A stretch of DNA of 64,000 nt from Poseidonia sp. (GTDB lineage: Archaea; Thermoplasmatota; Poseidoniia; Poseidoniales; Poseidoniaceae): assembly GCA_965661285.1 (NCBI GenBank), contig CBFIDD010000002.1:316515-380514 (forward strand), in the 5' to 3' direction. Numbering within the stretch: the first letter of the stretch is position 1; each line of letters opens with the position of its first letter. Positions 5,949-59,541 of the stretch are shown here, piece after piece. Under the pieces are notes generated by a model, which made no database searches, was not told the DNA's origin, and saw only the letters and a program-made list of their open reading frames with translations. The position numbers were made by a program, and so were the translations under genes.

Positions 5949-7147
5949 ATTTGAGAGAACACAACCAACGCTTGGAAAACAAACGCGAGGAAATCACGGC
6001 GTGGATGGCAAAAAAACGTGCTGAGGTCCCCATCCCAATCTATGGTAGCGTGGATGTACGCGACGCCGGTTGGAAAATCGGGGTTGTTGACGCGAATCAC
6101 TTCCCGGCTGGATTTAACAACGTATCTGAAGAAAACCTGATTGAACTTGCGAACTTGTTCAAAGAGCACGTCCACCGTGTCAACCCCTCCTGTGCTTGGG
6201 TTCACATCTACCCTGAAAACCACACGCGAAACCCCGGTTATGTAGAAAACATTGCCAGTATTCAATCCATGATCGAGCATGCAGGATTTACCTGCACCGT
6301 AGGTTCTCCTGACCTCAACGAATTCGATGCACTCAACGGATTGTCCGGCCCGTTGATGCTGCAAAGCGTCGAAGTGGATGACGAAGGAAAGCTGACGGTC
6401 GGGCAACAGAATCCGGACTTGATTTTACTCAACAACGATTTGACCGAAGGCATCATTCCAGGAATTCAAAGCACCAACATCACACCACCACCTCACATGG
6501 GTTGGTATCGCCGACGCAAATCGCAACATTATGAGATGCTCAAGCCTTACGTCGAGGAAATGGCCGACCTTCTTTCCTTGGATCCGTGGCATTTGATGCC
6601 AGAGTGGTTTGTCTCTCAAGACAAATGTTTGATCGAAGATGCATGCAGGTTCAAACTTGCCGCTGAGATCGATGCCTTCCTTGACCGCCTGCGAGCGAAG
6701 TACGCGAGCCTCGGCATCGAGCGAGAACCCACGGTCGTGATGAAGAACGACAGCGGCACCTACGGCCTTGGCGTCATGATGTTAACATCCGGCGAGCAAA
6801 TCCTCAATCTCTCGAAGCGAAAGGCGAACAAACTCCGTTATGCCAAAGGCGGTGCTGATGTTGAAAACTACCTCATCCAAGAAGGCATACCGACCGCCCT
6901 TTCCACCGAGAACAACGAAACCCTCGAGCCTGTGGTCTATCTCGTGGATGGTGAGGCCGCCTCCTGGTTTTACCGCATCAATGCGAAAAAATCCGACATG
7001 GACAATCTCAACTCCCCCAGTTCTCGATTTGAGAATTACGAAGACAGCAAAAACCCGCACCTCGAAGAAGCACACGGGTGGCACGCCCTCGTCGCTGAAT
7101 TGAGCATGCTCGCCATGGGGGCGGAAGCCAAAGCATCGGCCAACTAA
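5945..7147 (+). CDS. putative glutamate--cysteine ligase-like / ATP-dependent carboxylate-amine ligase family protein (tentative)
   Basis: 400 aa. Start overlaps the asnB stop by 4 nt (translational coupling). Overall resemblance to the bacterial GshA-type (Pfam GshA-like) ligases is recalled from memory, not verified. Confidence 0.3.
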   Translation: MNLREHNQRLENKREEITAWMAKKRAEVPIPIYGSVDVRDAGWKIGVVDANHFPAGFNNVSEENLIELANLFKEHVHRVNPSCAWVHIYPENHTRNPGYVENIASIQSMIEHAGFTCTVGSPDLNEFDALNGLSGPLMLQSVEVDDEGKLTVGQQNPDLILLNNDLTEGIIPGIQSTNITPPPHMGWYRRRKSQHYEMLKPYVEEMADLLSLDPWHLMPEWFVSQDKCLIEDACRFKLAAEIDAFLDRLRAKYASLGIEREPTVVMKNDSGTYGLGVMMLTSGEQILNLSKRKANKLRYAKGGADVENYLIQEGIPTALSTENNETLEPVVYLVDGEAASWFYRINAKKSDMDNLNSPSSRFENYEDSKNPHLEEAHGWHALVAELSMLAMGAEAKASAN

Positions 7148-7184: not shown

Positions 7185-7862
7185 ATGAGCCAGCGGGTTT
7201 GGTTGTACATCATGACCATCGCCGTTGGGCTGTGGATTTCTGCAACCGCTGCGGGAGGTCTTCTCCCTGATGCGCTGGCCGAATGGCCCGTGAACGTATG
7301 GTGCTGGGGCGTGTTTGCGTTTATTTTCAAAGGCGCCGACCAAAAGGAGCGCATTGAGATGGTCGCCGTCGTAGCGCTCGCAACGCCCATGGAACTGTTC
7401 TTCTCCGAGGTTTGGCTGGTCTACGAGTACCAACGCGAATTCATGCCGCTCTTTGTCCCAGCAGGCCACTATTTCCTCTTCGATCTGGGCCGGCGAGGAG
7501 CATCCCTGATGCGGGTTGAAATGGCCCTTCCGCTGCTCTTGCCCTTCGTCCCCCTCGTGGCCTACGGCGCATGGACGGGAGGTGACACCTCCGGGGTCGT
7601 CATGCTGCTCCTCGTCTTGGGATTCACCAAATGGGGACCCCAACCGCGACTGTATGCCGCCATGGCGTGGGCAGCCTTGGCCATGGAACTCTGGGGGACC
7701 TATCTCGGAAACTGGACGTGGGCCACCGACGTGCCTTGGACCAACTTGACAGCGTGGAATCCGCCACTCCTGGTGGGCGCCTTCTACTGTTTTGGCGACC
7801 TCTTGGTTAACCTGTGCGTTGCTAAGTTTCAAGGGGAACCTACGTCCGAGGTTCTACCATGA
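7185..7862 (+). CDS. integral membrane protein, unknown function
   Basis: 225 aa, several Trp-rich hydrophobic helices. Tightly packed in the same-strand gene string after the ligase-like gene. Confidence 0.45.
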   Translation: MSQRVWLYIMTIAVGLWISATAAGGLLPDALAEWPVNVWCWGVFAFIFKGADQKERIEMVAVVALATPMELFFSEVWLVYEYQREFMPLFVPAGHYFLFDLGRRGASLMRVEMALPLLLPFVPLVAYGAWTGGDTSGVVMLLLVLGFTKWGPQPRLYAAMAWAALAMELWGTYLGNWTWATDVPWTNLTAWNPPLLVGAFYCFGDLLVNLCVAKFQGEPTSEVLP

Positions 7863-8191
7863 CCGGCGCTGACGAGCTGCGCAAGCGCCGCGAGCAAGAG
7901 GCGCTTCGTATTCGTACGGCGCTGAACCGGCAGCGTGGCGAACAGCGTGCCAACACCAAGGGAGGCGAAGGAACCGTGGCCTTTGTTGAGGAACGCAAAT
8001 GCATCGGTTGCGACCAGTGCACCATCGTCTGTGATGACGATGCGATTGAACTCTACTTCGTGGATGTCCGCAGCCCGCTGATGTCGGTGGAGAGCAACCG
8101 GAAGGCGAAGATCATTCGAGATGCGTGCACAGGATGCCGATTGTGTGTCCTCGCATGCCCAACCGATGCCATCACGATGATTGACCGATGA
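7859..8191 (+). CDS. 4Fe-4S dicluster ferredoxin-domain protein
   Basis: Two CxxCxxCxxxC(P) motifs: CIGCDQCTIVCDD and CTGCRLCVLACP. 110 aa. Overlaps the upstream gene by 4 nt. Confidence 0.7.
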   Translation: MTGADELRKRREQEALRIRTALNRQRGEQRANTKGGEGTVAFVEERKCIGCDQCTIVCDDDAIELYFVDVRSPLMSVESNRKAKIIRDACTGCRLCVLACPTDAITMIDR

Positions 8192-8611: not shown

Positions 8612-9799
8612 CTACTTTGCTTTTCGATCTGAATATGAACTCAACCATGCCTCATCAATCATTTCGTTAATCCAATATTTACTTCGTTTTATTATCGTCA
8701 TGAGTTGCCTTCCATGTATTAACTTCAATGGATATCTTAGTTCATGAACCTCTTCTTGTGCTTGTTTTGAGAAAAATGAGGTGGTGACATAAATCCCATA
8801 TTCTCCTCTGTCGAGTCTTGCAACTAAGCGCGATAATTGAACGGGATTAATGTAGTTTGAACTGGCATACCTCTTCACCTCTCCTTTCAATTTAATCTCA
8901 AATCTGAATGGTTCATCAATCATCATTGAACCTATGAAATCAAATCCTCCGTCTCCACTATTCTTGGTTTTTTCTAGATTTTTGAATAAAGTGCCTCCGA
9001 CTTCAAGGAAAAGATCAACGATTATTTGTTCAAAGACATACGGGTTAATTTCATTCAAGCGTTCCAATGCCATCCATTCTGGAGAATTGGTTGGTGGTAA
9101 TTGATCTTCTTTTGTCAAAATTGAATCATTCCAAGCGGTAAGATATGAGTGGGCATTCCTTGATACGTATTCTCTCCAAGCAAGAGGAGATTTGTCCAGT
9201 CGGGAATCAAGTTCCTCATGCTTGCGCCAATTCGTCAACCAATCAATCGCAACCTGTGGGGTATTTAGAATTCGTAAAGTTGCTCTGTAATTCCTAACAG
9301 GTATGTCTCCATCCATGAACCACTCAACGTCTAATTTTTCTAGAATGCACAAACCGTTGAAGCGATTATATCCCGTTCTTTTTGTGAAATGGAGAATGAA
9401 GGAAGGTTGAGTTGAACCGTTGCGGAGGTTTTCATCGAGCGCCTTCAGTACTTTGTTTCCTTTGAAATCATCAAGAGACTTATCTGGGTCTGCAACTGAA
9501 TCGCCCCAGTAATAAATTACACCATTGTGCTGGTCAACAATATCATCCCAAGGTTTAGGAGTATTCGTTTTACCTGAGTGAGTGAACAAAAACACACCGT
9601 CAATTTGCTTCTTTCTTGATGAGTTTGGAGATTTCAATGCTCTAATGCCCCCTGCATTAGTCAACCCGGATTCAGGTAGGTTAACCCAACTCAGAAATTG
9701 GTCTTCCGGATCGTCTTTCCTTTTTGCGTCTCTGTACTCTTTGCCGACCTCAAAGAATTTCCCAGAGCCTGCTGTAATCCAGTTATCTGAACCACTCAT
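8612..9799 (-). CDS. Mrr-catalytic-domain (PD-(D/E)xK) nuclease fusion; candidate modification-dependent (Type IV / MspJI-AspBHI-like) restriction endonuclease with an unassigned N-terminal ~250-aa domain
   Basis: C-terminal 130 aa match the Mrr_cat pattern: FEQIIVDLFLEVGG ... SGDGGFDFIG ... EIKLKGEVKRY ... GIYVTTSFFSKQAQEEV ... LKLIHGRQL (D ... ExK intact). N-terminal domain has no obvious family. Solo gene, no methyltransferase nearby. Low GC. Confidence 0.7.
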   Translation of the reverse strand: MSGSDNWITAGSGKFFEVGKEYRDAKRKDDPEDQFLSWVNLPESGLTNAGGIRALKSPNSSRKKQIDGVFLFTHSGKTNTPKPWDDIVDQHNGVIYYWGDSVADPDKSLDDFKGNKVLKALDENLRNGSTQPSFILHFTKRTGYNRFNGLCILEKLDVEWFMDGDIPVRNYRATLRILNTPQVAIDWLTNWRKHEELDSRLDKSPLAWREYVSRNAHSYLTAWNDSILTKEDQLPPTNSPEWMALERLNEINPYVFEQIIVDLFLEVGGTLFKNLEKTKNSGDGGFDFIGSMMIDEPFRFEIKLKGEVKRYASSNYINPVQLSRLVARLDRGEYGIYVTTSFFSKQAQEEVHELRYPLKLIHGRQLMTIIKRSKYWINEMIDEAWLSSYSDRKAK

Positions 9800-9840
9800 G
9801 AATTCCCCTCAACTGTTGTGGTAATTGAAATTATCACATT

Positions 9841-9925
9841 AATCAGAGGGTCACTCTGATTAGGCCTCAAAGCAGAGGGTACCCACTGCTTACCCATCTG
9901 AGCAAAGGGCGCCCTCTGAAGAATA
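9841..9925. repeat. degenerate third copy / hybrid of the cassette repeat between the nuclease gene and the TetR gene
   Basis: AATCAGAG-GGTCA-CTCTGATT palindrome (9841-9861). TCAAAGCAGAGGG. ACCCACTGCTTACCCATCTGA (cf. ACCCACTGCAAGCCCTCTGAT in the left repeat). GGGCGCCCTCTGAAG. Confidence 0.5.
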
Positions 9926-9935
9926 ATTATCCAAC

Positions 9936-10586
9936 CTAGATCCAACCCTTAAGAATCGTGTGTATACCCGCTTTTAGTTCAACACTCATATCGAGGTTAA
10001 GAAACGTTAAGTCTGGGTGTTTAAGGGCAGATTTGGAAGGGCTTGAGGGGTTTGCCAGAGGATAAAGTCCCAAGGCGAAAGCCAACATCTGTCCAAATGC
10101 TTGAAGGGCATCTTCTAGTCTGGTAAAATGCCCGTTTCTCATTAATGCCTCTGCACCTCTCTGCATGAGTGAGAGTAGATTCAACTTATGTTCAATTAGC
10201 ACTTCAACTGAAACCTCTCGTTCATACAATGCTGGAGTAAGTGAAAAAAGAGAAAGAAAGCGATATTCCTTGAGAAAGATTTTGGTGATGGCACTCGCAA
10301 ACATATCTAAATCGCTTAATTCAAGTTTGGAATCTTCCTCTAATCCGAGAACTACGTCCTCAAAATCGCATAGATGAACATGAAGAAGCAACGATTGGAT
10401 GTTCTCAAAATATCTGTAAATACCGCTCGGTGAAATTCCAACCGAGCTGGCAAGCGGACGCATTCGAAGATCCAGCGGGTCAGTTGTTTTGAGAAGCGTG
10501 CGGACGGCTTCAACAATCGCTCTTTTTCTGACTTCACGATGCTCAGTTGAACGAGCGCGTTGGAAGGGAATCTCTGGGCCAGTCAT
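9936..10586 (-). CDS. TetR/AcrR-family transcriptional regulator
   Basis: N-terminal HTH (RKRAIVEAVRTLLKTTDPLDLRMRPLASSVGISPSGIYRYFENIQSLL). 216 aa. Divergent from an SDR gene. Confidence 0.8.
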   Translation of the reverse strand: MTGPEIPFQRARSTEHREVRKRAIVEAVRTLLKTTDPLDLRMRPLASSVGISPSGIYRYFENIQSLLLHVHLCDFEDVVLGLEEDSKLELSDLDMFASAITKIFLKEYRFLSLFSLTPALYEREVSVEVLIEHKLNLLSLMQRGAEALMRNGHFTRLEDALQAFGQMLAFALGLYPLANPSSPSKSALKHPDLTFLNLDMSVELKAGIHTILKGWI

Positions 10587-10625
10587 GTGAATAACCCCTG
10601 CTCTGGGTGGAGGACACTTGAACTT

Positions 10626-10654
10626 AACGGAACACTGTTTCGTTAAATATATAT
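10626..10654. promoter_or_regulatory. candidate TetR operator palindrome plus TATA-like box in the TetR/SDR divergent intergenic region
   Basis: AACGGAACAcTGTTTCGTT (10626-10644, one mismatch from a perfect palindrome) is immediately followed by TTAAATATATAT. The TATA overlaps the first ATG of the SDR ORF, so the SDR more likely starts at the Met at 10677. Confidence 0.35.
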
Positions 10655-11660
10655 GGAGGATTTGGTTCGGCGAATCATGCCTCGTTCTCTCCGAATTGAC
10701 CCAAGCCTTCGTAACATCGACCTCTCCGGAAAAAGATACGTCATCACCGGTGGCTCAAGCGGCTCAGGACAAGCCACGGTTGAATTCCTTGCAAAGCAGG
10801 GTGCCGAGGTGATCACCACGGGACGAGATCTGGCTCGTGGGCGTCAAAATTTTGAATCCCTACCGCTCGCTGTCCAGGGACGAATCACACTCCTTCATCT
10901 TGATTTAGAAAACATGGAAAGTGTCGAAAAGTTTGCAGCTGAGGTAAACAAAAAGTGGCAGTCGTTTGATGCATTGGTCAACAATGCGGGAGGTGCCCTC
11001 ACGAAAAACGGCACTTTCGAGCTAAACAGAAAAACATACGACAAACAATTTGTCGGCAACCATATAGGGGTATTCCACCTCAGTAACTTACTTCTTCCCG
11101 GGCTTGAAGCCAATGATGGGGCTCGACTCATCAACGTCTCATCCGTCATGCACGACCAGGCGAAAGGTTTGCAGTCGACTCAGGCTCAGATACATTGGGA
11201 TGACATCCATGCCCGCAAGCGCAAGTTCGATGGGTTTGACCAGTATGCTCAATCAAAACTCGCCAACCTCCTTCACGCAAAATCGCTGGCAAGGAAGTAC
11301 GATAAAGACAACATTGCTGTTTTCCCCGTTCACCCAGGGACGATCAGCAAAGGCAGTCGTTTCGGCCGTTCGATGGGACCACTAATGCGCGCAATGATGG
11401 TCCCTCTTAGCATCCTGATGGGACCTATCATGCGCCCCATCACGAAGGAAGACGGCGCTCAGACCACCCTCCACTGCCTGCTTTCCGAGGAAGCTCTGAA
11501 CCACCACGGAGTGTATCACGCTCAAACCGGACTCAAACACAGCGACGGTGTTCGCGGGGGCTGGCCGTACCGGTCAGCCAATCCGTTGTCTCATGACGAA
11601 GCCGCTCAGGACCAATTGTGGAGCCTGAGTGAGGAACTTGTGGCAGAATTGAAAGCCTGA
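10653..11660 (+). CDS. short-chain dehydrogenase/reductase (SDR), retinol-dehydrogenase-like
   Basis: ITGGSSGSGQATVEFLAKQGAEVITTGRD (Rossmann TGxxxGxG). VNNAGG. 335 aa. Probable true start at 10677 (MPRSLR...). Confidence 0.85.
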   Translation: MEDLVRRIMPRSLRIDPSLRNIDLSGKRYVITGGSSGSGQATVEFLAKQGAEVITTGRDLARGRQNFESLPLAVQGRITLLHLDLENMESVEKFAAEVNKKWQSFDALVNNAGGALTKNGTFELNRKTYDKQFVGNHIGVFHLSNLLLPGLEANDGARLINVSSVMHDQAKGLQSTQAQIHWDDIHARKRKFDGFDQYAQSKLANLLHAKSLARKYDKDNIAVFPVHPGTISKGSRFGRSMGPLMRAMMVPLSILMGPIMRPITKEDGAQTTLHCLLSEEALNHHGVYHAQTGLKHSDGVRGGWPYRSANPLSHDEAAQDQLWSLSEELVAELKA

Positions 11661-11808: not shown

Positions 11809-14619
11809 TCAAGCTTCTGCGGTCTCGCCAACGGTCGTTTCGGCACCGAGTTGGGCCTTCTGCTCGTTGACTTGGCGAGCGAGGAAGGACACGACGTCGA
11901 GGATCTCGATGTCAGCATAGGCTTCGTCGCCCTCGAACTTGAGGCACTCAAAGTGAGAAACACACTTTGGGCAGGAGGTCAACATGGTCTCAGCACCGGT
12001 TGCACGGACTTCTTCCATGCGTGTGACACGCAGGGAGCGGGCGTTCTCGTTGCAGGACATCATGCTCGAAACACCGCAGCACATGGCGTCTTCACCGCTG
12101 TGCTCCATCTCAACAATCTCAACACCATCAACAGCGTTGATGAGGTCGCGAGGCTCGTCGTAAATGCCCATCTGTCGACCGAGGCGGCACGGGTCGTGGT
12201 AGGTGACGGTGGTGTCTTCGGTCTTGAGGTTCATGTCAAAGCCTTGCTCGGTCAGGTATTCCGTGGTGTGCATGACCTTCACGTTTTCAAGTTCGTAATC
12301 ACGGGCAAAGGTTCGGAAACACTCAGCACAGGACGAGACCAAGGTGTCAATGCCAGATTCGTTGATCTTGCGCTGGTTGTACGCCTTGAGCTTCTCAAAG
12401 ACTTCATCCAGACCTTGCCACTTTTGGTCGTGGCCGCAGCACTTCAGGAAGTCACGGCCGAGGTAGGCCACGTCGGTGCCCATCTCCTCAAACAGGGTGA
12501 AGGCAGCCGTGGTTGTATCACCAAGGTTCATCGTGCCTTCGTTGACGTGGGAGAAGACCATCTCCTGGTCAAGGTAGTCAACGCATCCAGGGTAGTATCC
12601 GACGTTGGAGGTGATGGGGTAGTCTTCGGTGGCGATGAAATCGTCATCGGCCGCTTCCTCAGCCTCAGCGTTGAGCACCGCTTGAAGGACGGTGTGCGGA
12701 ATTTCTGCCTGCGGGCCGCCAACGATAAGCGAACGACGGATGTCAACGTAGGAGTCATAGTTGACGAGTTGAGGACAGGCGTTGGTGCATGCGGTACAGG
12801 TCAAACAGGAATACAGCGGGACGCCGTCGTCTTCGTTGTTCCACGAATTGTAAATGATGTTCAGTTTGTCGCCACCGTTGAACAAGCGGACCGGACAGGC
12901 GTCGTCGCACAGGTCGCAGCCGTAGCACTTGTTCATCTCGAACTCGTAGCCACGAGCCATGTAGCGCAACAGCACGAAGACCAGCGCACCGAAGGTGATG
13001 CATGGAATGAACATGGCGTAGGTCAATTTTGCGTCAAGGGACTTGGGGTTTTGGTGGTAAGTAGGGTTCTCGATGTACGAGAACGCCGAACCGCCCAGGG
13101 CCATCTCTTCGCTGTTGGTAAGGTTGACCGTGTGGCCGGCCAATGCTGCAGGAGCGCTCTCATCCCACACGAGCAAGGGCTGGTAGGTTGCGATCCTCAT
13201 CGAGGTTTGCGTCGTGATGCTGTTGTTGAGCGCCAGCGCCCCGCTGACCACGACATCGTAGGTGTAGTCGTAGGTGCCAACGGACATTTCGACGGTTGCA
13301 CCCTCGCAGTTGGCGAAGGAAACCACTTCGCTACCCGTGGCGTCGGTGACGGTCAGCATGGTAGCGACCATGGTTTGGGTTGACACATCGTTGATTTTCC
13401 GTTCGCTGGAGCGGAACTCACACGCAAGGTCGGTGGTCAAGGTGGTGACCTCTTCGGGGTGTCCCTCGGGGAAGAGCGTGGTGTCTTCAGTGATGGTAAA
13501 CGAACCGCTCACGCTGAAGCCATCCCCACCGTTGAACGTGGTTCCAGCCGCCGCTGCGTTGATGCCGTTTTCGGCGTCTTGATGCCCGTTCGCATCGTTG
13601 AAATCCGTGATGATGTAGCGGGCTGGCTGGTAGATGTTCCAGTTCAACCATGCCGTGGTTGGAACCACGCCTGAGTCGGACCACCCGCGGTCGTCGGTGA
13701 ATTCATTCACGTCGTGAACATGAACATCGGAAGGCTGCGTTCGCATGGCCTCCAATTCGCCATAGTCCTTGATGGTCAGCAAACCTTTCGCATCCCAAAA
13801 CCCTTTGTCGTAGGTGTCGAAGGTGGCCACGGTAGCGGCGGACGAGAGGATAAGCGCGCCGACGATGAGTTGGCGACTCTTGGCGACCGTGAACCCTGCA
13901 CCCCAGGCGCGGATGAGCAATCCTCTGCCGATGAAATAAATACATATCCACATCAGGACGCCTGTCATCACCCACGGTATCGCATTGAAGACTTCGGCTA
14001 TCCACGGCTCCCGAGTTCCACAGAGGAGGTCGCCGTGGGAATCGAGTTTACAGAAATCGGACCGATTTTTCCCGTACAATTCCAGGAAGATGTTGATGGA
14101 AAACACCGAGATGAACCAGATGTGCGCAAGATAGACGGCACCGGCAGCTGCGAACCAAGGGTCCTCAACGGGTCGCTTCTCACGGCCACCAAGGAAAGGT
14201 GGCAAAGCGAGAATGCCCACGGGGATGCCGGTCAGCGCAGCGCCCCACCATGCAGCGTTCCAAGGGAACATGGGCTGGCCGACGATATCGCCGACGAAAC
14301 CGGTGGGGACCACAAACTGGGGCAAGTATTCGCCCCAGCGGAGATACCCGTAGGAGAACAACACGTACCAGTCGGGGAACACGAAACCGGCCTGTGCATA
14401 CGGGTCGGCTGCGCCGTGCAGTGGTGGAGGAATCAGCCAGGCATAGAAGAGGAGGATGGAGAGCATCGAGGCGAAAATGATGCTATCACGCAGCACTTCG
14501 TGCGGCCAGAAACCGTGGCCGGTTCGGGTTCGCTTACGCTTTTCCTCTGCTTTTTGCAGTTGCTCTTTCTCCTCCATATACATGGAGGCGACGCGTCCAA
14601 AATTGTCAATCAGTCCCAT
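11809..14619 (-). CDS. fusion protein: cytochrome b C-terminal half (b6f subunit IV / PetD-like) + ~270-aa extracytoplasmic insert + TM + cytoplasmic HdrD/GlpC-like iron-sulfur domain (2x[4Fe-4S] + two CCG domains)
   Basis: 936 aa. N-terminal PDWYVLFSYGYLRW (PEWY-type motif) in multi-TM context. Middle Thr/Ser-rich Cys-free segment. TM LTYAMFIPCITFGALVFVLL. Then CYGCDLCDDACP, CLTCTACTNACP, YYPGC...KCCGHD, YHDPCRLG...MCCGVS, CPKC. Confidence 0.75.
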   Translation of the reverse strand: MGLIDNFGRVASMYMEEKEQLQKAEEKRKRTRTGHGFWPHEVLRDSIIFASMLSILLFYAWLIPPPLHGAADPYAQAGFVFPDWYVLFSYGYLRWGEYLPQFVVPTGFVGDIVGQPMFPWNAAWWGAALTGIPVGILALPPFLGGREKRPVEDPWFAAAGAVYLAHIWFISVFSINIFLELYGKNRSDFCKLDSHGDLLCGTREPWIAEVFNAIPWVMTGVLMWICIYFIGRGLLIRAWGAGFTVAKSRQLIVGALILSSAATVATFDTYDKGFWDAKGLLTIKDYGELEAMRTQPSDVHVHDVNEFTDDRGWSDSGVVPTTAWLNWNIYQPARYIITDFNDANGHQDAENGINAAAAGTTFNGGDGFSVSGSFTITEDTTLFPEGHPEEVTTLTTDLACEFRSSERKINDVSTQTMVATMLTVTDATGSEVVSFANCEGATVEMSVGTYDYTYDVVVSGALALNNSITTQTSMRIATYQPLLVWDESAPAALAGHTVNLTNSEEMALGGSAFSYIENPTYHQNPKSLDAKLTYAMFIPCITFGALVFVLLRYMARGYEFEMNKCYGCDLCDDACPVRLFNGGDKLNIIYNSWNNEDDGVPLYSCLTCTACTNACPQLVNYDSYVDIRRSLIVGGPQAEIPHTVLQAVLNAEAEEAADDDFIATEDYPITSNVGYYPGCVDYLDQEMVFSHVNEGTMNLGDTTTAAFTLFEEMGTDVAYLGRDFLKCCGHDQKWQGLDEVFEKLKAYNQRKINESGIDTLVSSCAECFRTFARDYELENVKVMHTTEYLTEQGFDMNLKTEDTTVTYHDPCRLGRQMGIYDEPRDLINAVDGVEIVEMEHSGEDAMCCGVSSMMSCNENARSLRVTRMEEVRATGAETMLTSCPKCVSHFECLKFEGDEAYADIEILDVVSFLARQVNEQKAQLGAETTVGETAEA

Positions 14620-14634
14620 TTTTTCCCCTCTGTA

Positions 14635-15501
14635 TCAATGCGGCTCCGCAATGCCTTGTACCCAAACGATGAACAGATGTATGATGATGAGCGTGGTGAC
14701 GATCACCGGCAGAATGAACACGTGAATGAAATACATTCGAGTGACCGTCAGCGGTGTGAGTTCAGAGCCCGAGAAGAGCAGGGTGGCGATGTACTTCCCA
14801 ACCAGCGGGCTGGAGTTGGCGAGGTTGATCCCGATGATGGCCGCACCGTAAGCAAGGCTGTCCCACGGCAAGAGATAGCCGGAGTAGCCGAAGACGATGG
14901 TCAAGGCCATGAGGGCCACACCGATGAGCCAGTTCAGTTCACGTGGGTTTCGGTAGGCACCGGTGAAGTAGACACGGCACATGTGCAAGAACACGCTGGC
15001 GACCATGAAGTGGGTCGTCCAGTGGTGGACGGCACGCAGAATGTAGCCAAAGGGCAGTTGCGTCATGATGTACTGCATGCTTGCATAAGCGGGTGATGGG
15101 TCGCCTTCGCCTCCGGGGACGTAGTAAATTCCGAGGACGGTTCCCGTGATCACGAGGATGATGAAGGAGAGGAAGGAGATACCGCCGAGACAGTACAGCG
15201 GGTACCAGTACCAGATGATGCGGAGTTTGTATTTCTCAGCGTGTGTCAACGGCATTTGTCGGTGCATGTTGTAGTAGGCACCTTTGGACATGTTCCAGTA
15301 GTCTTGGAGACGGAAGCGGGTGTCAAGCCAGGAGAAGACCCACAGGAACGACCGTTCCGCCACGCCCATCTTGCCGGACGACTCGACCGCTCGCAGGATG
15401 TCTCTGCGAGGCATTTCCTCGTTTTCCTTGCGCAGCGTGAAGGCCACCAAGAGCACGAGGAAGGCGATGAAGAACCACAGAATCCAGAACATTGTCGTCA
15501 T
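14635..15501 (-). CDS. petB: cytochrome b (N-terminal, b6-like heme-binding half) of a bc/b6f-type complex
   Basis: 288 aa. 4 TM with conserved His pairs (RAVHHWTTHFMVASVFLHMCRVYFTGAY ... His in later helices). Confidence 0.85.
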   Translation of the reverse strand: MTTMFWILWFFIAFLVLLVAFTLRKENEEMPRRDILRAVESSGKMGVAERSFLWVFSWLDTRFRLQDYWNMSKGAYYNMHRQMPLTHAEKYKLRIIWYWYPLYCLGGISFLSFIILVITGTVLGIYYVPGGEGDPSPAYASMQYIMTQLPFGYILRAVHHWTTHFMVASVFLHMCRVYFTGAYRNPRELNWLIGVALMALTIVFGYSGYLLPWDSLAYGAAIIGINLANSSPLVGKYIATLLFSGSELTPLTVTRMYFIHVFILPVIVTTLIIIHLFIVWVQGIAEPH

Positions 15502-15510
15502 GTCAACACC

Positions 15511-16356
15511 TCAATCACAATACGTGTACCAGTCCACGTAGTCAGGCAGGCCTTCGATGACGCCGCCGTTGAGCTGAATCGGAATGATGGGAAGACCCAC
15601 AGGGGCAGGACCGCCCGCTCGGCGAATACCAGCATAGTTGAAGGTGGCACCGTTCGAACGGTTACGATTGGTGTTCATCTCCAAGGCCGTTGGGTCAAAG
15701 CGAGAGGAGTGGCAGATGCAGAACATCTTGGTGCCACCGTCGTCGCCGCCACCGGGCGTCCACGAGTCTTCGGTGAAGGAATTCGAGACGAGTTGCCATC
15801 CGGGGATACAACACAGGTGTGTGCAGCGACCGAAGGCCATCACGAGGTCGTCTGAAGGCATTAAACGAGGGTCGGCTTCAGCGAGGTCTTCGAAGTGACC
15901 GACGTATTTGCCAGTCTCGTCGTAGCCTTCCATGAACTGGAACCGAGCCTTACCGTTGGATTCGGGCGTGCCGGCATACTTGGAGTGAGCGACATAGTTC
16001 ACAACGACGGGCACGCCGTTCCATACGCCCGCTGCACCGGCCGTGCCGGTCGAGGAGGAGGCAGCCTCGGCTTCAAAGTCCGCTTTGGTCATGGGCTGCA
16101 GGTGTTTGGCGCCGTACCATGCTTCATCTTCGCGGCCCTTGGCCCAAAATTGGACGGCCAAGTCGCCACCGCTGCCTCCGCCAGGTGGCAGAAGAATAGC
16201 AGCAAATCCGAGCATGCCAAGCGAAGCGGTGAGCACGCCCGCTGCGGTGTTGAAACCGTAGCGAAGGAACTGGCGTCGATTGATGGTGGTGGTGGAACCG
16301 CCCAGAGCATCGTCGCCGCTGGAAGGTGCAGGTTTGAGTTCGTATTCACGTGCCAT
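15511..16356 (-). CDS. petA: Rieske [2Fe-2S] iron-sulfur protein with twin-arginine (Tat) signal
   Basis: RRQFLRYGFNTAAGVL Tat motif. Rieske boxes CTHLCC ... CICHSSRF. Confidence 0.85.
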   Translation of the reverse strand: MAREYELKPAPSSGDDALGGSTTTINRRQFLRYGFNTAAGVLTASLGMLGFAAILLPPGGGSGGDLAVQFWAKGREDEAWYGAKHLQPMTKADFEAEAASSSTGTAGAAGVWNGVPVVVNYVAHSKYAGTPESNGKARFQFMEGYDETGKYVGHFEDLAEADPRLMPSDDLVMAFGRCTHLCCIPGWQLVSNSFTEDSWTPGGGDDGGTKMFCICHSSRFDPTALEMNTNRNRSNGATFNYAGIRRAGGPAPVGLPIIPIQLNGGVIEGLPDYVDWYTYCD

Positions 16357-16362
16357 GCTGCA

Positions 16363-16809
16363 TCACCACTTGTACTCCCGCCAGTCTTTCTGGTGTTCTG
16401 GAATGAATTTGTTTTGAGCGTGCTTGACGATGATGGTGTCGGGAAGGATGAACTTCAGGTAGATGATGCCGATCATGATGAGCGTGGTCATGGTCATGGC
16501 GAGGTGGAAGGAGAGTTGTTGTTGGTCCCATCCCTTTGCAAGCCCGTAAATCATGGAGAAACTCCAGTAGCAGATCCAAAACAGGCCCCAGCCGAGGAAG
16601 AACATCGTGAGGTAGGATGCGCCGGAAGGTGCAAGCGAAGCGCTCACAATGGTGCCCGGCTCAGCGATGTTGAACACACCGTGGTCGATGGCACTCGCCA
16701 TCTCGTCTTCGGTCAATTCTGTACCCTCGAGCGCCTTGCGGGCGTCGTCAACGTTGATGCTGCCGTCAGCAACACCTCGAAGCAGGGTCGTGATTGTATC
16801 GTCCATCAT
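16363..16809 (-). CDS. small membrane protein in the bc operon
   Basis: 148 aa. Acidic N-terminal segment then 2-3 hydrophobic helices. Overlaps the upstream gene by 4 nt. Confidence 0.35.
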   Translation of the reverse strand: MMDDTITTLLRGVADGSINVDDARKALEGTELTEDEMASAIDHGVFNIAEPGTIVSASLAPSGASYLTMFFLGWGLFWICYWSFSMIYGLAKGWDQQQLSFHLAMTMTTLIMIGIIYLKFILPDTIIVKHAQNKFIPEHQKDWREYKW

Positions 16810-17651
16810 TGATCACCTCGGCGCATGAGTTTGTATCGCAAGCGAAGCTGGTTGCTTCGTCCCTTGTACGATGTTGAAAAGCCGTAGCGAAGCAAAAGAC
16901 CGGCGAAGATGACCACGCCAATGACCGCACCGAAGCCGAGAAGCCCCAGCCAGTGCGCACGGAGTTTCGCACCCATGTGATGCAGGTCAACGCCGTGGTG
17001 AGCAGGTTCGGGCGGGCTAACGTTTCCGTCGCCCGCAAACAAGGTACGAGTGCCCATGGCGGCAGAGGCTTCATCACCTTCGTTGAGCGCAAAGTTGAGT
17101 TGATTCCACCGGTCTTCGACACCGGGGATTTGGTCGCCGTTCACGGAGTTTCCAACGATCCAGAAGTTCACGGCGCCCGCACCGGAGTCAGCGGGTGCGG
17201 TCCAGTCAAAGACCCACGAGCGATCCTCGGTGGCAGCCGATGCCTCGGTGTGCGTCAGGGTTTGTTCGTCAAGCGTTCCGTCAATTTCCCAGTTTTGGGC
17301 AACGTCGCTGGCGAGGCTGCCGAGGGAGACACGCATGGAGAATCCTGCAGTGTAGGTGCCGGTGGCTGGAGGTCCGCCGATGAGTTGGAGATGGAGGGTG
17401 TAGGTTTCGCCGGGGACGTAGGCGAAGGGGACGTCGACGAGGATGACCTGGACCGCATTGTCGGCGACTTCGTTGTGGCAAAGACAACCCGATTTTGCCA
17501 CGTCGTCGATGTCGACCTGCCCCGTTGAGCCCTGGTGGGACTGAGGGCCACCGATGCCTCCGTGATAGGAGGAAGCGAGGGCGGGGAGGAGAAGCAAAAC
17601 CCCAACGAGCGTAAGCAGCACGGTGCGGGACGTGAGAGAAGTTTTGTGCAT
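16806..17651 (-). CDS. membrane-anchored extracytoplasmic protein, first gene of the Rieske/cyt b operon; candidate redox partner, function unknown
   Basis: 281 aa. N-terminal signal/anchor (LLTLVGVLLLLPALASS). C-terminal TM (LGLLGFGAVIGVVIFAGLLL). CLCHN is not a canonical CxxCH heme site. No cupredoxin motif recognised. Confidence 0.4.
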   Translation of the reverse strand: MHKTSLTSRTVLLTLVGVLLLLPALASSYHGGIGGPQSHQGSTGQVDIDDVAKSGCLCHNEVADNAVQVILVDVPFAYVPGETYTLHLQLIGGPPATGTYTAGFSMRVSLGSLASDVAQNWEIDGTLDEQTLTHTEASAATEDRSWVFDWTAPADSGAGAVNFWIVGNSVNGDQIPGVEDRWNQLNFALNEGDEASAAMGTRTLFAGDGNVSPPEPAHHGVDLHHMGAKLRAHWLGLLGFGAVIGVVIFAGLLLRYGFSTSYKGRSNQLRLRYKLMRRGDQ

Positions 17652-17807
17652 GGCCTCACCCTTACGACCTAACCGACCTGTAAGGACTCCTTAAACATTG
17701 CCAGCAAAACATCACATTGAGTGCGGCGCAGTGTTGCGTTTTTTGAGATATTTTGGAGCCCCTATCTATCACCCTAAAAACCCACCGAATTTCGTGCAGA
17801 AGGGTTC

Positions 17808-21036: not shown

Positions 21037-21528
21037 ATGGGAGGAGGAGGTACGGCGCCCGCTATGAAGATGAGCGATGTCTTCATCCTGACCGGGCTTA
21101 CCCTACTTCTTGGTGGCCTTTTCCTTCATGCTTGGGTCACCCCCATCGACCACAGCGGTGAAGACCCATCCTACACCAACGGCGCTTCCATGATGAAAGG
21201 CGATGAGTTCGCGTTCAGGGTGACGGTTGAAGCCGAAACCACCCTCCGCATTGTGGTGATGGACGATGAGAACACCATCCTTAGCGCCGAAAATTTCGTG
21301 CTTGCCGCCGGTGAAGAGCACAACGAACGAATCACCATGGAGACATCCGGCTACTACACGTACGAGATTGACACCAAAGGCGTCAATGCAACCATTGAAA
21401 CCGATATTGTGCGGAAGTACATGATCGACATGCTCCCCTTCCCCGTGGGTGCACTCCTCCTCGGCTTTGGATTGTATCAGCGCAAAGAAGTGGATGACGA
21501 GGTGCTGGACGCCGAGTTAGACGCCTGA
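21037..21528 (+). CDS. small bitopic membrane protein, unknown
   Basis: 163 aa. N- and C-terminal hydrophobic helices. Acidic C-terminal tail. Confidence 0.4.
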   Translation: MGGGGTAPAMKMSDVFILTGLTLLLGGLFLHAWVTPIDHSGEDPSYTNGASMMKGDEFAFRVTVEAETTLRIVVMDDENTILSAENFVLAAGEEHNERITMETSGYYTYEIDTKGVNATIETDIVRKYMIDMLPFPVGALLLGFGLYQRKEVDDEVLDAELDA

Positions 21529-22971
21529 CCACGTCACATCCTCTGGCTCGTCAAGCGCCTCGATGCCCTCGAGCCGCAATGAACCATCGACATTGACACC
21601 GAGGAGGTTGGATTCTTGACCTCTATAGAGAAGAGGTCCAAGCAGTTCTTCGCCGTGCAGAACCGCTTGTTCAACCTCGTCAGAGGAATCCAACCGTGGA
21701 AGAAGCGCCAGTCGTTCAAACAACGAAGCGACCATGGCATGAAGTTGAGGATGAAGGTCGGCTGAGCAGACTTGATGACCGAGGTCCTGAAGACTGCCAT
21801 GTTCGTCACCGCTGGCGTCAAGATTCAAGCCGATGCCCAGGATCACATGATGGGTCTCGCCTTGAGATATCGCCTCAAAGAGAACGCCACCTGCTTTTTT
21901 CATGTGGCCGTCCGATGAGCGAACGAACAGGTCGTTGGGCCATTTCAAGCACACATCTCCTGCCATTGCACCGCTCATGAACCGGACCATACGGGCCATG
22001 GCCTCTCCAACCCGTAACTGGTCTGCCGTAACGTGAGACCACCCTTGACCCGAATGGACAAGCCACGAGGCCATGAACGCCCCCGGGTAGGATTGCCATG
22101 TTCGTCCTCGTCGACCTCGCCCGGTGGTTTGTTTGTCCGCACGAACGGAGGCCCCGACAGCACCTGCGAACGCCATGACATCGTCGTTCGTACTCTCGGT
22201 GTGTGAGCGATACACCACGGGAGCGTCGACGTAGGGTTTCCACACCGCAATCACCGACAAGTGCTCTTCGTCCGCAAACGAGCGGGTGGCAACACAACGA
22301 GCAGCCATGCCAGCCGCCCACGCCATTTCGCACGCCGTATCACCCACGCCTTTGGAAGAAACCGTCATGTAAGCAACACCGTGCGGCGAAAGGAGGTTCG
22401 AGGAAGCCAGCCGGTGAAGCATCCGAACGTACAGACCTGTTTGGTCGTTGTCCGTGAGTGCCGCTTCCTCAAAGGGCCCCAGTTTCGCTCCCCGCAACGC
22501 ATCACCACCCAAATAAGGCGTGTTCCAAACGACCACGTCGTAGGTTTGATCGCCGCCCCATTGCGCGGACAAGCCGTCATCGGTGGGCCCTGGACCCCCC
22601 TCGAGAACGGTCGCACGGAGGCCATGCTGCTCGAAGTGGGCACGCGTGCAGGCAACAGCAAACGGATTGACATCGCACGCAGTGATAAGACAACCCAATC
22701 GCGCGGCGTAAAGGGAGAGCACACCCGAACCACAACCGATTTCCAGCCATCGCGTTTTAGGCGTCAAGCGCTGCGATGTCAGGACGGAAGCGAGGAGGTC
22801 GGTGTCCTCCCGAGGAGGATAAACTGTGGGGGGCACGGACATCGAGAAGACCTCACCGTTTGGCGCCTTCCAATCAACCAACGTTGCCGCCCGGACAAGG
22901 CGCTCAATCTCGGCCTCCGCATCAGCGGCATGGAAGGATTCATCACCACTCATGCACCGTCCAAAACGCAA
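21517..22971 (-). CDS. birA: bifunctional fusion: N-terminal HemK/Mtq2-like SAM-dependent methyltransferase + C-terminal biotin--[acetyl-CoA-carboxylase] ligase (BirA)
   Basis: MTase half: LEIGCGSGVLSLYAARLG (motif I), DVNP, NTPY (NPPY-type motif IV). BirA half: QTTGRGRRGRTWQS and KWPNDLF. 484 aa single ORF. Confidence 0.75.
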   Translation of the reverse strand: MRFGRCMSGDESFHAADAEAEIERLVRAATLVDWKAPNGEVFSMSVPPTVYPPREDTDLLASVLTSQRLTPKTRWLEIGCGSGVLSLYAARLGCLITACDVNPFAVACTRAHFEQHGLRATVLEGGPGPTDDGLSAQWGGDQTYDVVVWNTPYLGGDALRGAKLGPFEEAALTDNDQTGLYVRMLHRLASSNLLSPHGVAYMTVSSKGVGDTACEMAWAAGMAARCVATRSFADEEHLSVIAVWKPYVDAPVVYRSHTESTNDDVMAFAGAVGASVRADKQTTGRGRRGRTWQSYPGAFMASWLVHSGQGWSHVTADQLRVGEAMARMVRFMSGAMAGDVCLKWPNDLFVRSSDGHMKKAGGVLFEAISQGETHHVILGIGLNLDASGDEHGSLQDLGHQVCSADLHPQLHAMVASLFERLALLPRLDSSDEVEQAVLHGEELLGPLLYRGQESNLLGVNVDGSLRLEGIEALDEPEDVTWSGV

Positions 22972-35700: not shown

Positions 35701-36187
35701 CGACGGGGACAACTACTCTGACCCAACACCTGATTATCGTGCAGAAGACGGTGCTGACGCCTATCCACAAGACCCGACGCGCTGGATTCTCGAACCGGAG
35801 GAAGAAGGCGCGCTCTTCGCCTCGAGCAACGTGCTCGTCGGCGGTGGCGTTGGACTCGTGGTGCTTCTCGCCCTGATCGGATTCTTCATGCGTGGACGTC
35901 GGCCAAAGAGCGACAACGCTGCTTGGGAGATACCGCCAACCGTCGGAATGCCGGACTTCAACGCTCAACCCGCAGCCATTTCGCCGGGATACGCAGCGCC
36001 GGTCGCCATGCCCGACTTCAACGCTCAACCCGCCCAGGCCACTGTGGCTGCTCAACCCGCCTATGCACCGCCCGTGGCACAGCCTGACCCCGCTCGGGAG
36101 TACTACAACAGCCTCATTGCACAGGGGTACCCACACGATGATGCCGTGCGATATACTAAGCAATACTTCAACCAGTTCCACGGTTGA
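32705..36187 (+). CDS. large type-I membrane-anchored surface protein: signal peptide, SBBP-type beta-propeller repeats, ~20 thrombospondin type-3-like Ca-binding repeats, TM, Pro-rich cytoplasmic tail
   Basis: Start set at MRVNRVTLAATLTALLLSSLLLSAAV (signal). Propeller-like units (GDVIVAGYFSGETDFGG, DSFIVRVSNSG). Repeated DxDxDGxxD units (DTDGDGYSD, DQDGDGW, DGDGDGYGDN). TM LVGGGVGLVVLLALIGFF. Tail with tandem MPDFNAQPA. Confidence 0.7.
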   Translation: MRVNRVTLAATLTALLLSSLLLSAAVNPAQEQPLLDGEEHIVHTSARSTSAEVFLSSGGSTTHDEFSGAIAASDNGYVVAGDVNSSASTLTFGPHSYTPTSPYSNGNDFFVASLNNNGGWNYLVGADHTQGGVSFMSDVTSHAGNAIVAGYMYGPVDFGPTTLSSAVQFDAFVAQTDAAGNWMWAKGFQTLPNSSTDSSIPQAITVDQVGDVIVAGYFSGETDFGGTTINVSNPEVFIAKLDGANGALKWVVSGGGIGTQQVTDVVVDPSGTIHVSGVTQNNIRFGTQSYNTIGTTDSFIVRVSNSGAILGISGYGIPNQAVSLTNMAVDKNADLYIGGSFEGTMAKNGWSITANKGGSDLFFIKEGATPNNQWAVIGGTNAADSLRGMEVTSKGELVFTTFFISSTFTGGTKGATPTSSSWYNNQAIDALMGGLTNTGGWSWLDVTSSNALELGWGLALNSSDIATVVGSYAGPSGSDTITKGSTSVTTTGGWDNFVWALDPSMKADSDNDGVPDVNDNCPSDVNPLQENTDGDAQGDACDSDDDNDGITDNSPDNCPRGGAANWGSTQNFNDPANSTDWDRDGCKDDVEDADMDNDGVENDVDLCPRTSYQPPRPTWVSDEITDVDSDGCRDADEDTDDDGDGFEDVSDDCPTVIGNSTLGEEGCVDNDGDGWSNNFDDCPNDFGNSTLGGKNACPDMDGDGWADVDDAFIEDPTQWSDADGDGYGDNPEGTTPDDCPAAVGTSVLDRLGCLDTDGDGYSDPDSMWDAESGADAFIEDTTQWSDFDGDGYGDNYANDTWTDRNPSWPGEYRDDVVLQDACPTQEGTSWQNGMIGCPDQDGDGWYNLQDAFPNDATQWSDGDGDGYGDNASGNDADQCPDIAGTSTTDRLGCVDSDDDGYSDPDITWTPAQGADAFMADPTQWADQDNDFFGDNPAGDRPDDCPTVRGTSFIDRFGCEDSDGDGLSDATPEWTLEQGADACPLAYGNSSADRIGCVDTDGDNYSDPTPDYRAEDGADAYPQDPTRWILEPEEEGALFASSNVLVGGGVGLVVLLALIGFFMRGRRPKSDNAAWEIPPTVGMPDFNAQPAAISPGYAAPVAMPDFNAQPAQATVAAQPAYAPPVAQPDPAREYYNSLIAQGYPHDDAVRYTKQYFNQFHG
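34850..35320 (+). repeat. coding near-tandem DNA repeats (~45-bp units) inside the TSP3 region
   Basis: CAATGGTCGGACGCTGACGGCGACGGCTACGGCGACAAT at 34852, a near-identical copy at 35047 and another at 35272. Encodes (T)QWSDxDGDGYGDN. Confidence 0.5.
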
Positions 36188-55971: not shown

Positions 55972-55980
55972 GGTGAAGCA

Positions 55981-57222: not shown

Positions 57223-57228
57223 GGTGAG

Positions 57229-58242: not shown

Positions 58243-58244
58243 AC

Positions 58245-59531: not shown

Positions 59532-59541
59532 GGTCGATGAG

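Follow-up and report, generated by a model that had tools for sequence, protein, structure and literature searches.

A cytochrome b C-terminal half fused to an HdrD-like iron-sulfur module in the predicted respiratory complex III of Marine Group II archaea

We analysed a stretch of 64,000 nucleotides from Poseidonia sp. (assembly GCA_965661285.1, contig CBFIDD010000002.1, positions 316,515-380,514), referred to below as the window, whose own positions serve as coordinates throughout. This region is ~96% identical at the protein level to metagenome-assembled genomes (MAGs) of Poseidonia sp. (Marine Group II (MGII), Thermoplasmatota). At 11809-17651 on the minus strand it harbors a tight five-gene operon that, judged from its sequence, is the respiratory complex III of MGII, a predicted Rieske/cytochrome b6-type quinol oxidase, in which the last gene encodes the C-terminal half (C-half) of cytochrome b joined covalently to a cytoplasmic iron-sulfur (Fe-S) module of the HdrD type (hereafter the fusion protein). 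With belief and doubt evenly balanced, we propose that this module serves as a cytoplasmic wire that would pass electrons from a soluble donor, most likely of the ferredoxin type, to haem ci/bH and the quinone at the Qi site.

A first-pass annotation of this DNA had placed a five-gene minus-strand operon at 11809-17651, and all of its open reading frames (ORFs) are present, at 16806-17651, 16363-16809, 15511-16356, 14635-15501, and 11809-14619. They are separated by -4, 6, 9, and 15 bp and therefore form one tight operon. The distribution of the operon was followed in the best 80 of the at least 418 GTDB species representatives that encode a relative of the fusion protein, and all counts per 80 loci given below refer to this set. 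The five genes occur together in 65 of the 80 loci, and among the remainder some contigs are too short to contain the upstream genes. The same five-gene operon was also found in MGIIb.

The fusion gene (11809-14619, minus strand) is a continuous ORF encoding 936 amino acids (aa), for which hydropathy predicts six transmembrane (TM) helices at residues 46-66, 122-144, 161-179, 213-236, 251-269, and 532-558 and an N-in/C-in topology. Residues 1-240 (13900-14619, minus strand) comprise an N-terminal tail on the negative (n-) side of the membrane, the four helices E-H, the ef loop, and at positions 82-85 the Qo motif PDWY, which is invariant among the fusion orthologues. A Pfam search, which the first-pass annotation had proposed, recovered Fer4_8 and CCG in the fusion protein and missed the cytochrome b part, as neither the N-terminal 280 residues nor the ectodomain described below gave a match even at E<=10. 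Likewise, a phmmer search of the PDB with the single N-terminal sequence yielded only a signal at E 0.27, to subunit IV. When a profile of orthologues was compared with the whole PDB, however, only subunit IV of the b6f complex was matched, in constant register through the WP motif, helix E, ADPFA, and P(E/D)WY. Moreover, hhalign comparison with two genuine long cytochromes b scored 94.4% and 97.3% (E 8.7e-8 and 2.5e-11), with the alignment beginning just past helix D, and relatives of the fusion matched at E values down to ~1e-20 exceed the threshold of Pfam PF00032. Despite the missing direct Pfam match, the assignment of residues 1-240 as a cytochrome b C-half is thus established at the level of sequence comparison. 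The expected PetD-like N-terminus carrying PDWY is consequently correct as to the cytochrome b C-half, but not as to PetD itself: its four helices, instead of three, bring this part closer to helices E-H of long cytochromes b than to PetD.

Between helix H and the Fe-S module the chain makes an excursion to the outside. TM5 (residues 241-269; 13813-13899, minus strand; hydropathy) runs from inside to outside as the first arm of an MGII-specific hairpin and is missing from the compact relatives described below, where the Fer4 domain comes straight after helix H. It is followed by a 262-aa extracytoplasmic ectodomain with a beta-sandwich fold (residues 270-531; 13027-13812, minus strand) and by TM6 (residues 532-558; 12946-13026, minus strand; hydropathy), which returns the chain to the cytoplasm and appears as helix 527-553 in the predicted structure. 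The structure was predicted from either 22 close orthologues, resulting in a poor model (pLDDT, the predicted local distance difference test score, of 57), or 66 diverse sequences, resulting in a usable one (77.5). Instead of the single additional TM helix expected before, there are thus two, and the outside domain, assumed to be ~270 aa long, rich in Thr/Ser and free of Cys, is indeed Thr-rich (12.7% T, 7.5% S) but contains an invariant C400 and a nearly invariant C438. The MGII fusion thus corresponds to the compact plan with a TM5-ectodomain-TM6 hairpin inserted between helix H and the Fe-S module.

The Fe-S module starts with a 2x[4Fe-4S] ferredoxin domain (residues 559-640; 12700-12945, minus strand), which matches the Pfam Fer4_8/9/10 dicluster families at 3e-7 and contains two CxxCxxCxxxCP motifs (C565/568/571/575 and C605/608/611/615), with all eight Cys invariant in 66 sequences. 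Residues 641-915 (11875-12699, minus strand) form two Hdr-type CCG domains (PF02754, 7e-23, two copies) that are predicted to bind two non-cubane [4Fe-4S] clusters. Their ligand Cys, C679, C727, C728, C764, and C767 in the first and C811, C847, C848, C883, and C886 in the second domain, are spaced as C-x47-CCG-x34-CAEC and C-x35-CCG-x33-CPKC, in agreement with the five-Cys HdrD/HdrB pattern Cx(31-47)CCGx(33-36)CxxC, while the 2x[4Fe-4S] domain is HdrC-like. In addition, the CCG domains carry the conserved signatures CCGHDQ.WQG and HDPCR. Hence, the module of two [4Fe-4S] and two CCG sites described in the first-pass annotation stands, including the Cys spacing whose loss would have spoken against it: both five-Cys sets are complete, and 22 orthologues retain their ten Cys, and indeed all 18 cluster Cys, without exception. 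Among 66 sequences with identities down to 33%, conservation of the cluster Cys is complete or reaches at least 90%. Since the N-terminus is inside and six TM helices follow, the module is placed in the cytoplasm, on the n-side together with haem bH and the predicted haem ci. The proximal cluster should be situated at the n-side membrane surface, because C565 lies 7 residues past TM6 and because in the compact relatives the Fer4 motifs begin ~15-30 residues past the four TM helices.

The fusion might have arisen from a frameshift or an assembly error that joined petD and hdrD, or the Fe-S part might be a decaying appendage without redox role. We regard the chance of this as close to nil, although the N-terminus is not directly recognised by Pfam and public annotations name the protein only 'Fe-S oxidoreductase' or 'HdrD', overlooking the cytochrome b half. 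Full-length orthologues of 917-942 aa, with identities down to 61% and labelled as Poseidoniaceae, Thalassarchaeaceae, or Euryarchaeota MAGs, are present in more than 120 protein clusters from independent assemblies, relatives are encoded by at least 418 species genomes, and the exact sequence is found in NCBI on a 450-kb contig. The ORF is therefore genuinely continuous, which settles the question of a frameshift raised in the first-pass annotation, and these conservation data refute a frameshift or assembly artefact. Moreover, the fusion without the insert occurs in other archaeal lineages. Within MGII, identity is highest in the Fer4 domain (92%), followed by the CCG domains (82-86%), helices E-H (78%), the ectodomain (44%), and TM5 (38%). 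Being the most conserved part of the protein and having kept its cluster Cys, all 18 of them invariant, the Fe-S module is considered functional. The best 80 of the at least 418 species genomes are all Poseidoniales, and the fusion is an order-wide trait of this group, with compact relatives elsewhere in archaea.

Gene 4 (14635-15501, minus strand) encodes a 288-aa b6-type cytochrome b with helices A-D and a CxGG motif, which matches Pfam PF00033 at 1e-40, has cytochrome b6 as its best solved relative (4e-43), and is more than 90% identical across loci. His159/173 and His260/275 are conserved with b6-type spacing and form the pairs that ligate haems bL and bH. The sequence YC104LGG aligns with the haem-ci ligand Cys35 of b6 and C104 is invariant in 47 sequences; a haem ci is thus predicted for this cytochrome b. 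In addition, ~100 highly conserved residues extend the N-terminus and include an extra TM helix (5-23), a feature absent from canonical b6. Gene 3 (15511-16356, minus strand) encodes a 281-aa Rieske [2Fe-2S] protein with one TM helix (38-56) that would be exported by the twin-arginine translocation (Tat) system. It shows the Rieske boxes, disulfide Cys, and Tat signal of a Rieske subunit, and its motifs RRQFL, CTHLCC (178-183), and CICHSS (213-218) are invariant in 70 orthologues. No direct Pfam match was obtained for gene 3; the match to TIGR01416 (1.3e-8) stays under the 97-bit cutoff, and the Rieske protein in PDB 7yr9 was found at E 0.007.

Gene 2 (16363-16809, minus strand) encodes a small membrane subunit of 148 aa belonging to the DUF7318 family. 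The single sequence matched Pfam DUF7318 only at E 0.003, and a profile of 10 orthologues matched a Thermoplasmata DUF7318 protein by hhalign with 98.1% (E 6.8e-14). The DUF7318 gene holds the equivalent position across related archaeal operons and in MGIIb. Gene 1 (16806-17651, minus strand), which is present in 65 of the 80 loci and in MGIIb, encodes a 281-aa extracytoplasmic protein with a signal peptide, a choice-of-anchor V domain (NCBIfam NF041895, 1.6e-25), and a C-terminal TM anchor; hydropathy places its TM segments at 10-28 and 235-253. In 66 orthologues the motif DVAK.GCLCHN, which is CxCH and not CxxCH, is invariant, and HMGA..RAH is conserved just before the anchor. These two motifs are the only candidates for ligands in the protein, which yielded neither a CxxCH motif, nor a Pfam match at E<=0.01, nor a convincing relative in the PDB. 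A weak Reeler-like match was noted, and a Reeler-like protein holds the equivalent operon slot in another archaeal locus (P0154). When we searched for a c-type cytochrome subunit (c1, f, or dihaem c), no CxxCH motif was found in any of the five operon proteins, and the gene 1 protein is presumed to be the subunit on the positive (p-) side that takes the place of cytochrome c1/f.

Taken together, the MGII complex shares with b6f and with the b6-type complexes of Firmicutes and heliobacteria the split cytochrome b, the four-helix b6 part, the His spacing, the CxGG Cys, and the Tat signal of the Rieske protein. As in b6f, the Qo motif P(D/E)WY is located on the second polypeptide, in register with subunit IV. 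In contrast to b6f, this second polypeptide has four helices, a TM-ectodomain-TM hairpin, and a cytoplasmic Fe-S module of ~380 aa, and the operon contains neither cytochrome f/c1 nor the small Pet subunits, but DUF7318 and the choice-of-anchor V protein instead. The view that this architecture is absent from canonical bc1/b6f complexes is supported.

To delineate the family, fusion residues 1-290 were compared by phmmer, exhaustively, with 1.84 billion representative sequences, which resulted in only 121 matches. Among those with 30-43% identity are proteins of 543-626 aa that combine PF00032 above its cutoff with Fer4 and two CCG domains and do not contain the ectodomain. Others in this range of identity are sister fusions, in which PF00032 is joined to Fer4 only (336-458 aa), to FrhB_FdhB_N/C (531 aa), or to Laminin_G_3 (P0166). 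PDWY is present in all of these sister and compact forms, and the Fer4+CCG, FrhB, and the shortest Fer4-only forms have four TM helices, with the ferredoxin motif 15-30 residues past helix H. A search with one compact form (P0169) added dozens more proteins of 539-713 aa, some labelled Thermoplasmata and Geothermarchaeales. Compared with the compact Thermoplasmata-type forms, the MGII fusion is 33-35% identical overall. The relatives share the operon order of an outside acceptor (cytochrome c, multihaem cytochrome c, or a Reeler-like protein), DUF7318, Rieske, cytochrome b6, and the fused C-half; some related archaeal operons start with cytochrome c genes, and CxGG is present in every cytochrome b6 partner of a compact fusion that was checked.

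Several of these loci have peculiarities of their own. The FrhB/FdhB sister fusion (P0235) adjoins Fae/Hps, probably in an archaeon that uses coenzyme F420 and tetrahydromethanopterin, and the Fer4-dicluster-only fusion P0246 comes from a MAG labelled Halobacteria, in an operon beginning with cytochrome c. In Thermoplasmata-type operons outside MGII (L087-L089) and in the P0154 locus, the N-terminus of cytochrome b (758-878 aa) carries a Big_5 (Ig-like) ectodomain. An outside domain thus recurs across operons but on different subunits, as Big_5 on cytochrome b in these operons and as a beta-sandwich in the C-half fusion in MGII. In the P0169 locus (GCA_964347835.1/GCA_012974965.1), multihaem cytochrome c, a small protein, Rieske, cytochrome b6, and the compact fusion follow in this order, and directly after the fusion come HdrC-, HdrB-, and HdrA-like (1010 aa) genes, MvhD, and another multihaem cytochrome; a Rieske/cytochrome b complex may here be coupled to a flavin-based bifurcating Hdr module.

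The first-pass annotation took the wiring of a quinol-cycling complex to a cytoplasmic CCG module as a hint of direct electron exchange with a cytoplasmic disulfide or carboxylate substrate. The wiring is borne out in so far as a Rieske/cytochrome b6-type complex is covalently joined to the module, but the substrate finds no support, as no linked thiol or carboxylate partner was detected. In the mechanism we propose, the four clusters would act as a wire that conducts electrons from the cytoplasm to haem ci/bH, on the n-side of cytochrome b, so that a soluble cytoplasmic reductant would feed the quinone-reducing Qi site directly. The donor would most likely be of the ferredoxin type, for instance the RnfB-like neighbour described below, which 2-oxoacid:ferredoxin oxidoreductases would reduce as peptides and fatty acids are broken down. 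The quinol would then be re-oxidised at Qo, one electron passing via Rieske and an outside acceptor to the oxidase and the other returning via bL/bH. The anchored gene 1 protein, halocyanin-type copper proteins, or both could serve as this acceptor; MGII show high transcription of halocyanin/plastocyanin genes (PMC9723583). The enzyme would thereby be a donor:quinone reductase and a quinol oxidase in one, hard-wiring both the Q cycle as first conceived by Mitchell, with its donor on the n-side, and the ferredoxin-to-haem-cn route proposed for b6f. A haem cn that accepts ferredoxin electrons on the n-side, which is a long-standing proposal, and Mitchell's donor at centre N are both reviewed in PMC5600118.

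The candidate for such a donor is encoded outside the operon. The gene at 7859-8191 (plus strand) specifies a 110-aa RnfB-like ferredoxin with 2x[4Fe-4S] and a basic N-terminal tail (Fer4_21, 3e-14; best NCBIfam match rnfB TIGR01944, 8e-14, under its cutoff), which is named 'electron transport complex protein RnfB' in IMG and whose exact sequence occurs on 274 contigs. It is probably the orphan RnfB reported for MGII by Tully et al. In 65 of the 80 loci, of the MGIIa type, it is adjacent to the fusion gene in convergent orientation. In MGIIb, its 62% identical orthologue is found ~350 bp downstream and co-directional, and the other flanking genes of MGIIa are absent. That the adjacency outlasts the rearrangement between MGIIa and MGIIb speaks for a functional relation of ferredoxin and operon. 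Moreover, the three Thermoplasmata-type loci have a polyferredoxin/MvhD-like gene after the fusion, which in two of them overlaps the stop codon of the latter, a polyferredoxin gene directly follows the fusion in the P0154 locus, and in one archaeon HdrC/B/A-like genes and MvhD come after it. FrhB/FpoF modules oxidise F420H2 and constitute the input module of Fpo/Fqo, and electron transfer from ferredoxin or F420H2 to quinone is strongly exergonic. The co-travelling Fe-S proteins and the FrhB-type sister fusion argue for a protein or cofactor donor and for electron entry rather than for catalysis on a small disulfide. Entry is further favoured by the EtfD precedent, by the downhill thermodynamics and, again, the FrhB-type sister fusion, and by an independent suggestion for Angelarchaeales (PMC9038741).

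Several points weigh against electron entry from a ferredoxin. The direction of electron flow cannot be read from the sequence, and haem ci itself is predicted from a motif. In MGIIa the ferredoxin gene is convergent, so that it is not co-transcribed with the operon, and the region is broadly syntenic, which makes the adjacency weaker evidence there. The Hdr-type five-Cys sets, which are catalytic in HdrB and for which a plain wire has no obvious need, are complete in both CCG domains; in EtfD, which is a wire, the first CCG site is altered (PMC13083937). Equally, the donor could be an electron transfer flavoprotein (ETF) or a thiol.

The Hdr-type five-Cys sets are also the reason why the disulfide idea is kept as an alternative, in which electrons would leave the complex by quinol-based bifurcation: the high-potential electron would pass to Rieske and the oxidase, and the low-potential electron via bL, bH, and ci to the Fe-S module and on to a cytoplasmic acceptor such as a disulfide. 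We consider this unlikely. The complete HdrB/HdrD-type sets together with CCGHDQ.WQG/HDPCR, a disulfide-reducing site in Hdr (PMC13083937), are in its favour, but MGII are aerobic heterotrophs for which no methanogenic cofactors are reported (PMC6336850), and the operon is not associated with any candidate disulfide. The closest unfused relatives of the module, HdrD-like proteins of Methanoperedens with ~42% identity over its full length and identical motif spacing, head HdrC/B/A-MvhD clusters, and one archaeon's fusion directly precedes HdrC/B/A-like genes and MvhD, yet the FrhB-type and Fer4-only sister fusions suit input modules better. A comparable idea exists for anammox-type Rieske/cytochrome b complexes with NAD(P)-binding Fe-S subunits (PMC5600118); in MGII, however, transfer from bH/ci, expected above ~-150 mV, to acceptors at the ferredoxin level would be uphill. 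Finally, a gene for glutamate-cysteine ligase (GshA; PF08886, 4e-101; 5945-7147, plus strand) lies ~2 kb from the operon in MGIIa, in 58 of the 80 loci, but is not adjacent in MGIIb. That the complex III of an obligately aerobic archaeon makes cytoplasmic reducing power, with quinol oxidation at Qo, pulled by the oxidase via Rieske, driving an electron into Hdr-type CCG clusters, has at best a slim chance.

The ligase gene hints at gamma-glutamylcysteine as low-molecular-weight thiol, like in haloarchaea, and together with the Hdr-type CCG pairs it bears on a second alternative, a dithiol:quinone oxidoreductase resembling HdrDE in reverse, in which the CCG clusters would oxidise gamma-glutamylcysteine or a protein dithiol/persulfide carrier and deliver the electrons to Qi. 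With HdrDE, there is a precedent in which a CCG protein is mounted on a membrane b-cytochrome. Nevertheless, we judge a dithiol donor very doubtful: neither a thiol carrier (DsrC/TusA-like) nor a thiol-metabolism gene was found in or next to the operon in the lineages examined, the adjacency of GshA is gone in MGIIb, and the recurrent neighbours are of the ferredoxin type. As in HdrDE, and in the HdrD-like proteins DsrK, TmcB, and HmeD, a module of 2x[4Fe-4S] and two five-Cys CCG sites is placed on a membrane b-type cytochrome serving a quinone-like carrier. In contrast to HdrDE, the MGII module is fused, its membrane part is a Rieske/cytochrome b C-half and not the NarI-like HdrE, and there is no NarI-like gene in the operon. 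By this membrane part, and by scores far under the cutoffs of the Hdr families in NCBIfam, the complex does not classify as HdrDE. The fusion protein also remains under every other curated NCBIfam cutoff, with TfrB as the best at 112.6 of 385 bits, followed by LdhH (82/800), GlpC (46/278), and DsrK (37/400); the scores for TmcB and HdrB/C are likewise far under theirs, and the GlcF cutoff is not reached.

The best match of the module in both sequence and fold is mycobacterial EtfD (Rv0338c/MSMEG_0690, PDB 9ojn), a protein of an aerobe in which, as in MGII, one polypeptide joins TM helices to two Fer4 and two CCG sites. In EtfD, electrons of a cytoplasmic protein donor have been shown to run through a chain of four clusters, the last of which lies 7 A from a b haem, and to reach menaquinone, which links the protein to beta-oxidation (PMC13083937). 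An ETF might dock on the CCG domains within the MGII complex III and deliver electrons to the Qi quinone. The equivalent chain that ties beta-oxidation to menaquinone in EtfD (PMC13083937), and a life on lipids and peptides that PMC9723583 ascribes to MGII, are consistent with ETF as the donor, which we nevertheless hold to be quite unlikely. The first CCG site of EtfD has four Cys, a linear [3Fe-4S] cluster, and a His ligand (PMC13083937), whereas the MGII site is of the Hdr type, with C727-C728-G and C764-A-E-C767 in place of C-T-G and C-P-H-C. Furthermore, the TM domain of EtfD is N-terminal, NarI-like, has five TM helices, and carries its own b haem, whereas the unrelated TM part of the MGII fusion, a cytochrome b C-half, is haem-free and the haems are located on a separate subunit. 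By the pattern of cluster ligands and by this membrane domain, membership in EtfD is ruled out, and the scores under every curated NCBIfam cutoff point in the same direction. Finally, a crude signature test revealed no ETF-alpha signature in the 64-kb window, and no etf genes were found in the related loci examined.

The proposal of a ferredoxin-fed wire has a parallel in Ca. Angelarchaeales, for which one sentence of Diamond et al. 2022 (PMC9038741) mentions hdrD-like and rnfB-like genes near complex III and suggests entry of ferredoxin electrons. The MGII operon shares with the Angelarchaeales/Thermoplasmata-type loci the order of DUF7318, Rieske, cytochrome b, and a PF00032+Fer4+CCG protein, after which those loci have a Fer4/FlpD protein. 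In contrast to MGII, the Thermoplasmata-type forms are without hairpin and ectodomain and have their Fe-S partner directly downstream, where MGII has a separate small ferredoxin, and the accessible part of the Angelarchaeales account (PMC9038741) describes the hdrD-like gene as a neighbour and does not state a fusion to the cytochrome b C-half. The anammox or 'subfamily G' complexes (Kartal et al.; PMC5600118) likewise possess a Rieske/cytochrome b core with an additional cytoplasmic Fe-S oxidoreductase, for which exchange on the n-side or bifurcation has been proposed, but they are bacterial and their additional part is a separate NAD(P)-binding subunit, whereas the HdrD-like module of the archaeal MGII is covalently fused. 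The 'unusual Rieske/cytb complex' of Methanoperedens (PMC4683180) is a different one, as the closest HdrD-like protein there is unfused and has no Rieske/cytochrome b gene nearby. For MGII, a cytochrome b and a Rieske protein without canonical complex III have been described, termed 'MGII specific (complex III)' (PMC6336850). Within the openly available full-text literature, we found no description of a fusion between a cytochrome b C-half and HdrD, nor of the hairpin/ectodomain insertion, the family of sister fusions, or the link to the orphan RnfB. The modules are thus all known, and their combination is new.

MGII are among the most abundant planktonic archaea of the surface ocean, and their missing second cytochrome b half is located in a gene annotated as Fe-S oxidoreductase or HdrD; in addition, their orphan 'RnfB' obtains a likely role. 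Textbook bc1/b6f enzymes do not let a cytoplasmic carrier plug straight into the complex, which the MGII module probably does. Few enzymes of bioenergetics have been studied as thoroughly as the bc/b6f complexes, and a natural four-cluster chain on the n-side of a cytochrome b of the haem-ci type would make two old ideas testable, Mitchell's original Q cycle with an external donor at centre N and the disputed cyclic electron flow from ferredoxin to haem cn. The bc complexes have been proposed to descend from cytochromes b that anchored protruding Fe-S dehydrogenases (PMC5600118), and the sister fusions (Fer4-only, Fer4+CCG, and FrhB-like) fit this view. Should ferredoxin, ETF, or thiols indeed deliver their electrons here, estimates of the energy yield of MGII heterotrophy would need revision.

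Upstream of the operon, inspection of the sequence revealed a candidate archaeal promoter and ribosome-binding region at 17654-17695 (minus strand), consisting of a TTTAAG box (17690-17695), ~42 nt ahead of the ATG of gene 1, and GGTGAGG (17654-17660). Scans for bacterial-type promoters and terminators in the region gave results at chance level; this type of scan is unsuited to an archaeon. On the downstream side, a block at 8612-11660 has a GC content of 0.45-0.50 as compared to ~0.57 and encodes an AspBHI/Mrr-type restriction endonuclease, a TetR regulator, and a short-chain dehydrogenase/reductase (SDR). Nearly all of the 80 Poseidoniales loci lack it (SDR in 3, TetR in 1), so that it represents a strain-specific insertion, placed between the operon and the ferredoxin gene that usually adjoins it. 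As parts of this insertion, SDR and TetR are ruled out as partners of the operon.

Near-identical operon proteins were also found in public records labelled Verrucomicrobiales, Flavobacteriales, and Woesearchaeota (including NZEQ01000055.1), which are most likely mis-binned Poseidoniales contigs. An asparagine synthase-like gene (4161-5948, plus strand) accompanies the glutamate-cysteine ligase gene, ~2-4 kb off the operon, in 52-58 of the 80 loci. A methyltransferase fused to a lipoate/biotin protein ligase is encoded near the operon (21517-22953, minus strand) and also beside the operon in MGIIb, and inspection of N-termini points to lipoyl synthase and a complete 2-oxoacid dehydrogenase cluster (E1 alpha/beta, E2, E3) at 54955-60972 (plus strand). 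Lastly, three very large ORFs at 41881-50805 (minus strand), 50894-53860 (minus strand), and 32705-36187 (plus strand), of 2974, 988, and 1160 aa, possess N-terminal hydrophobic segments and probably encode surface or secreted proteins.

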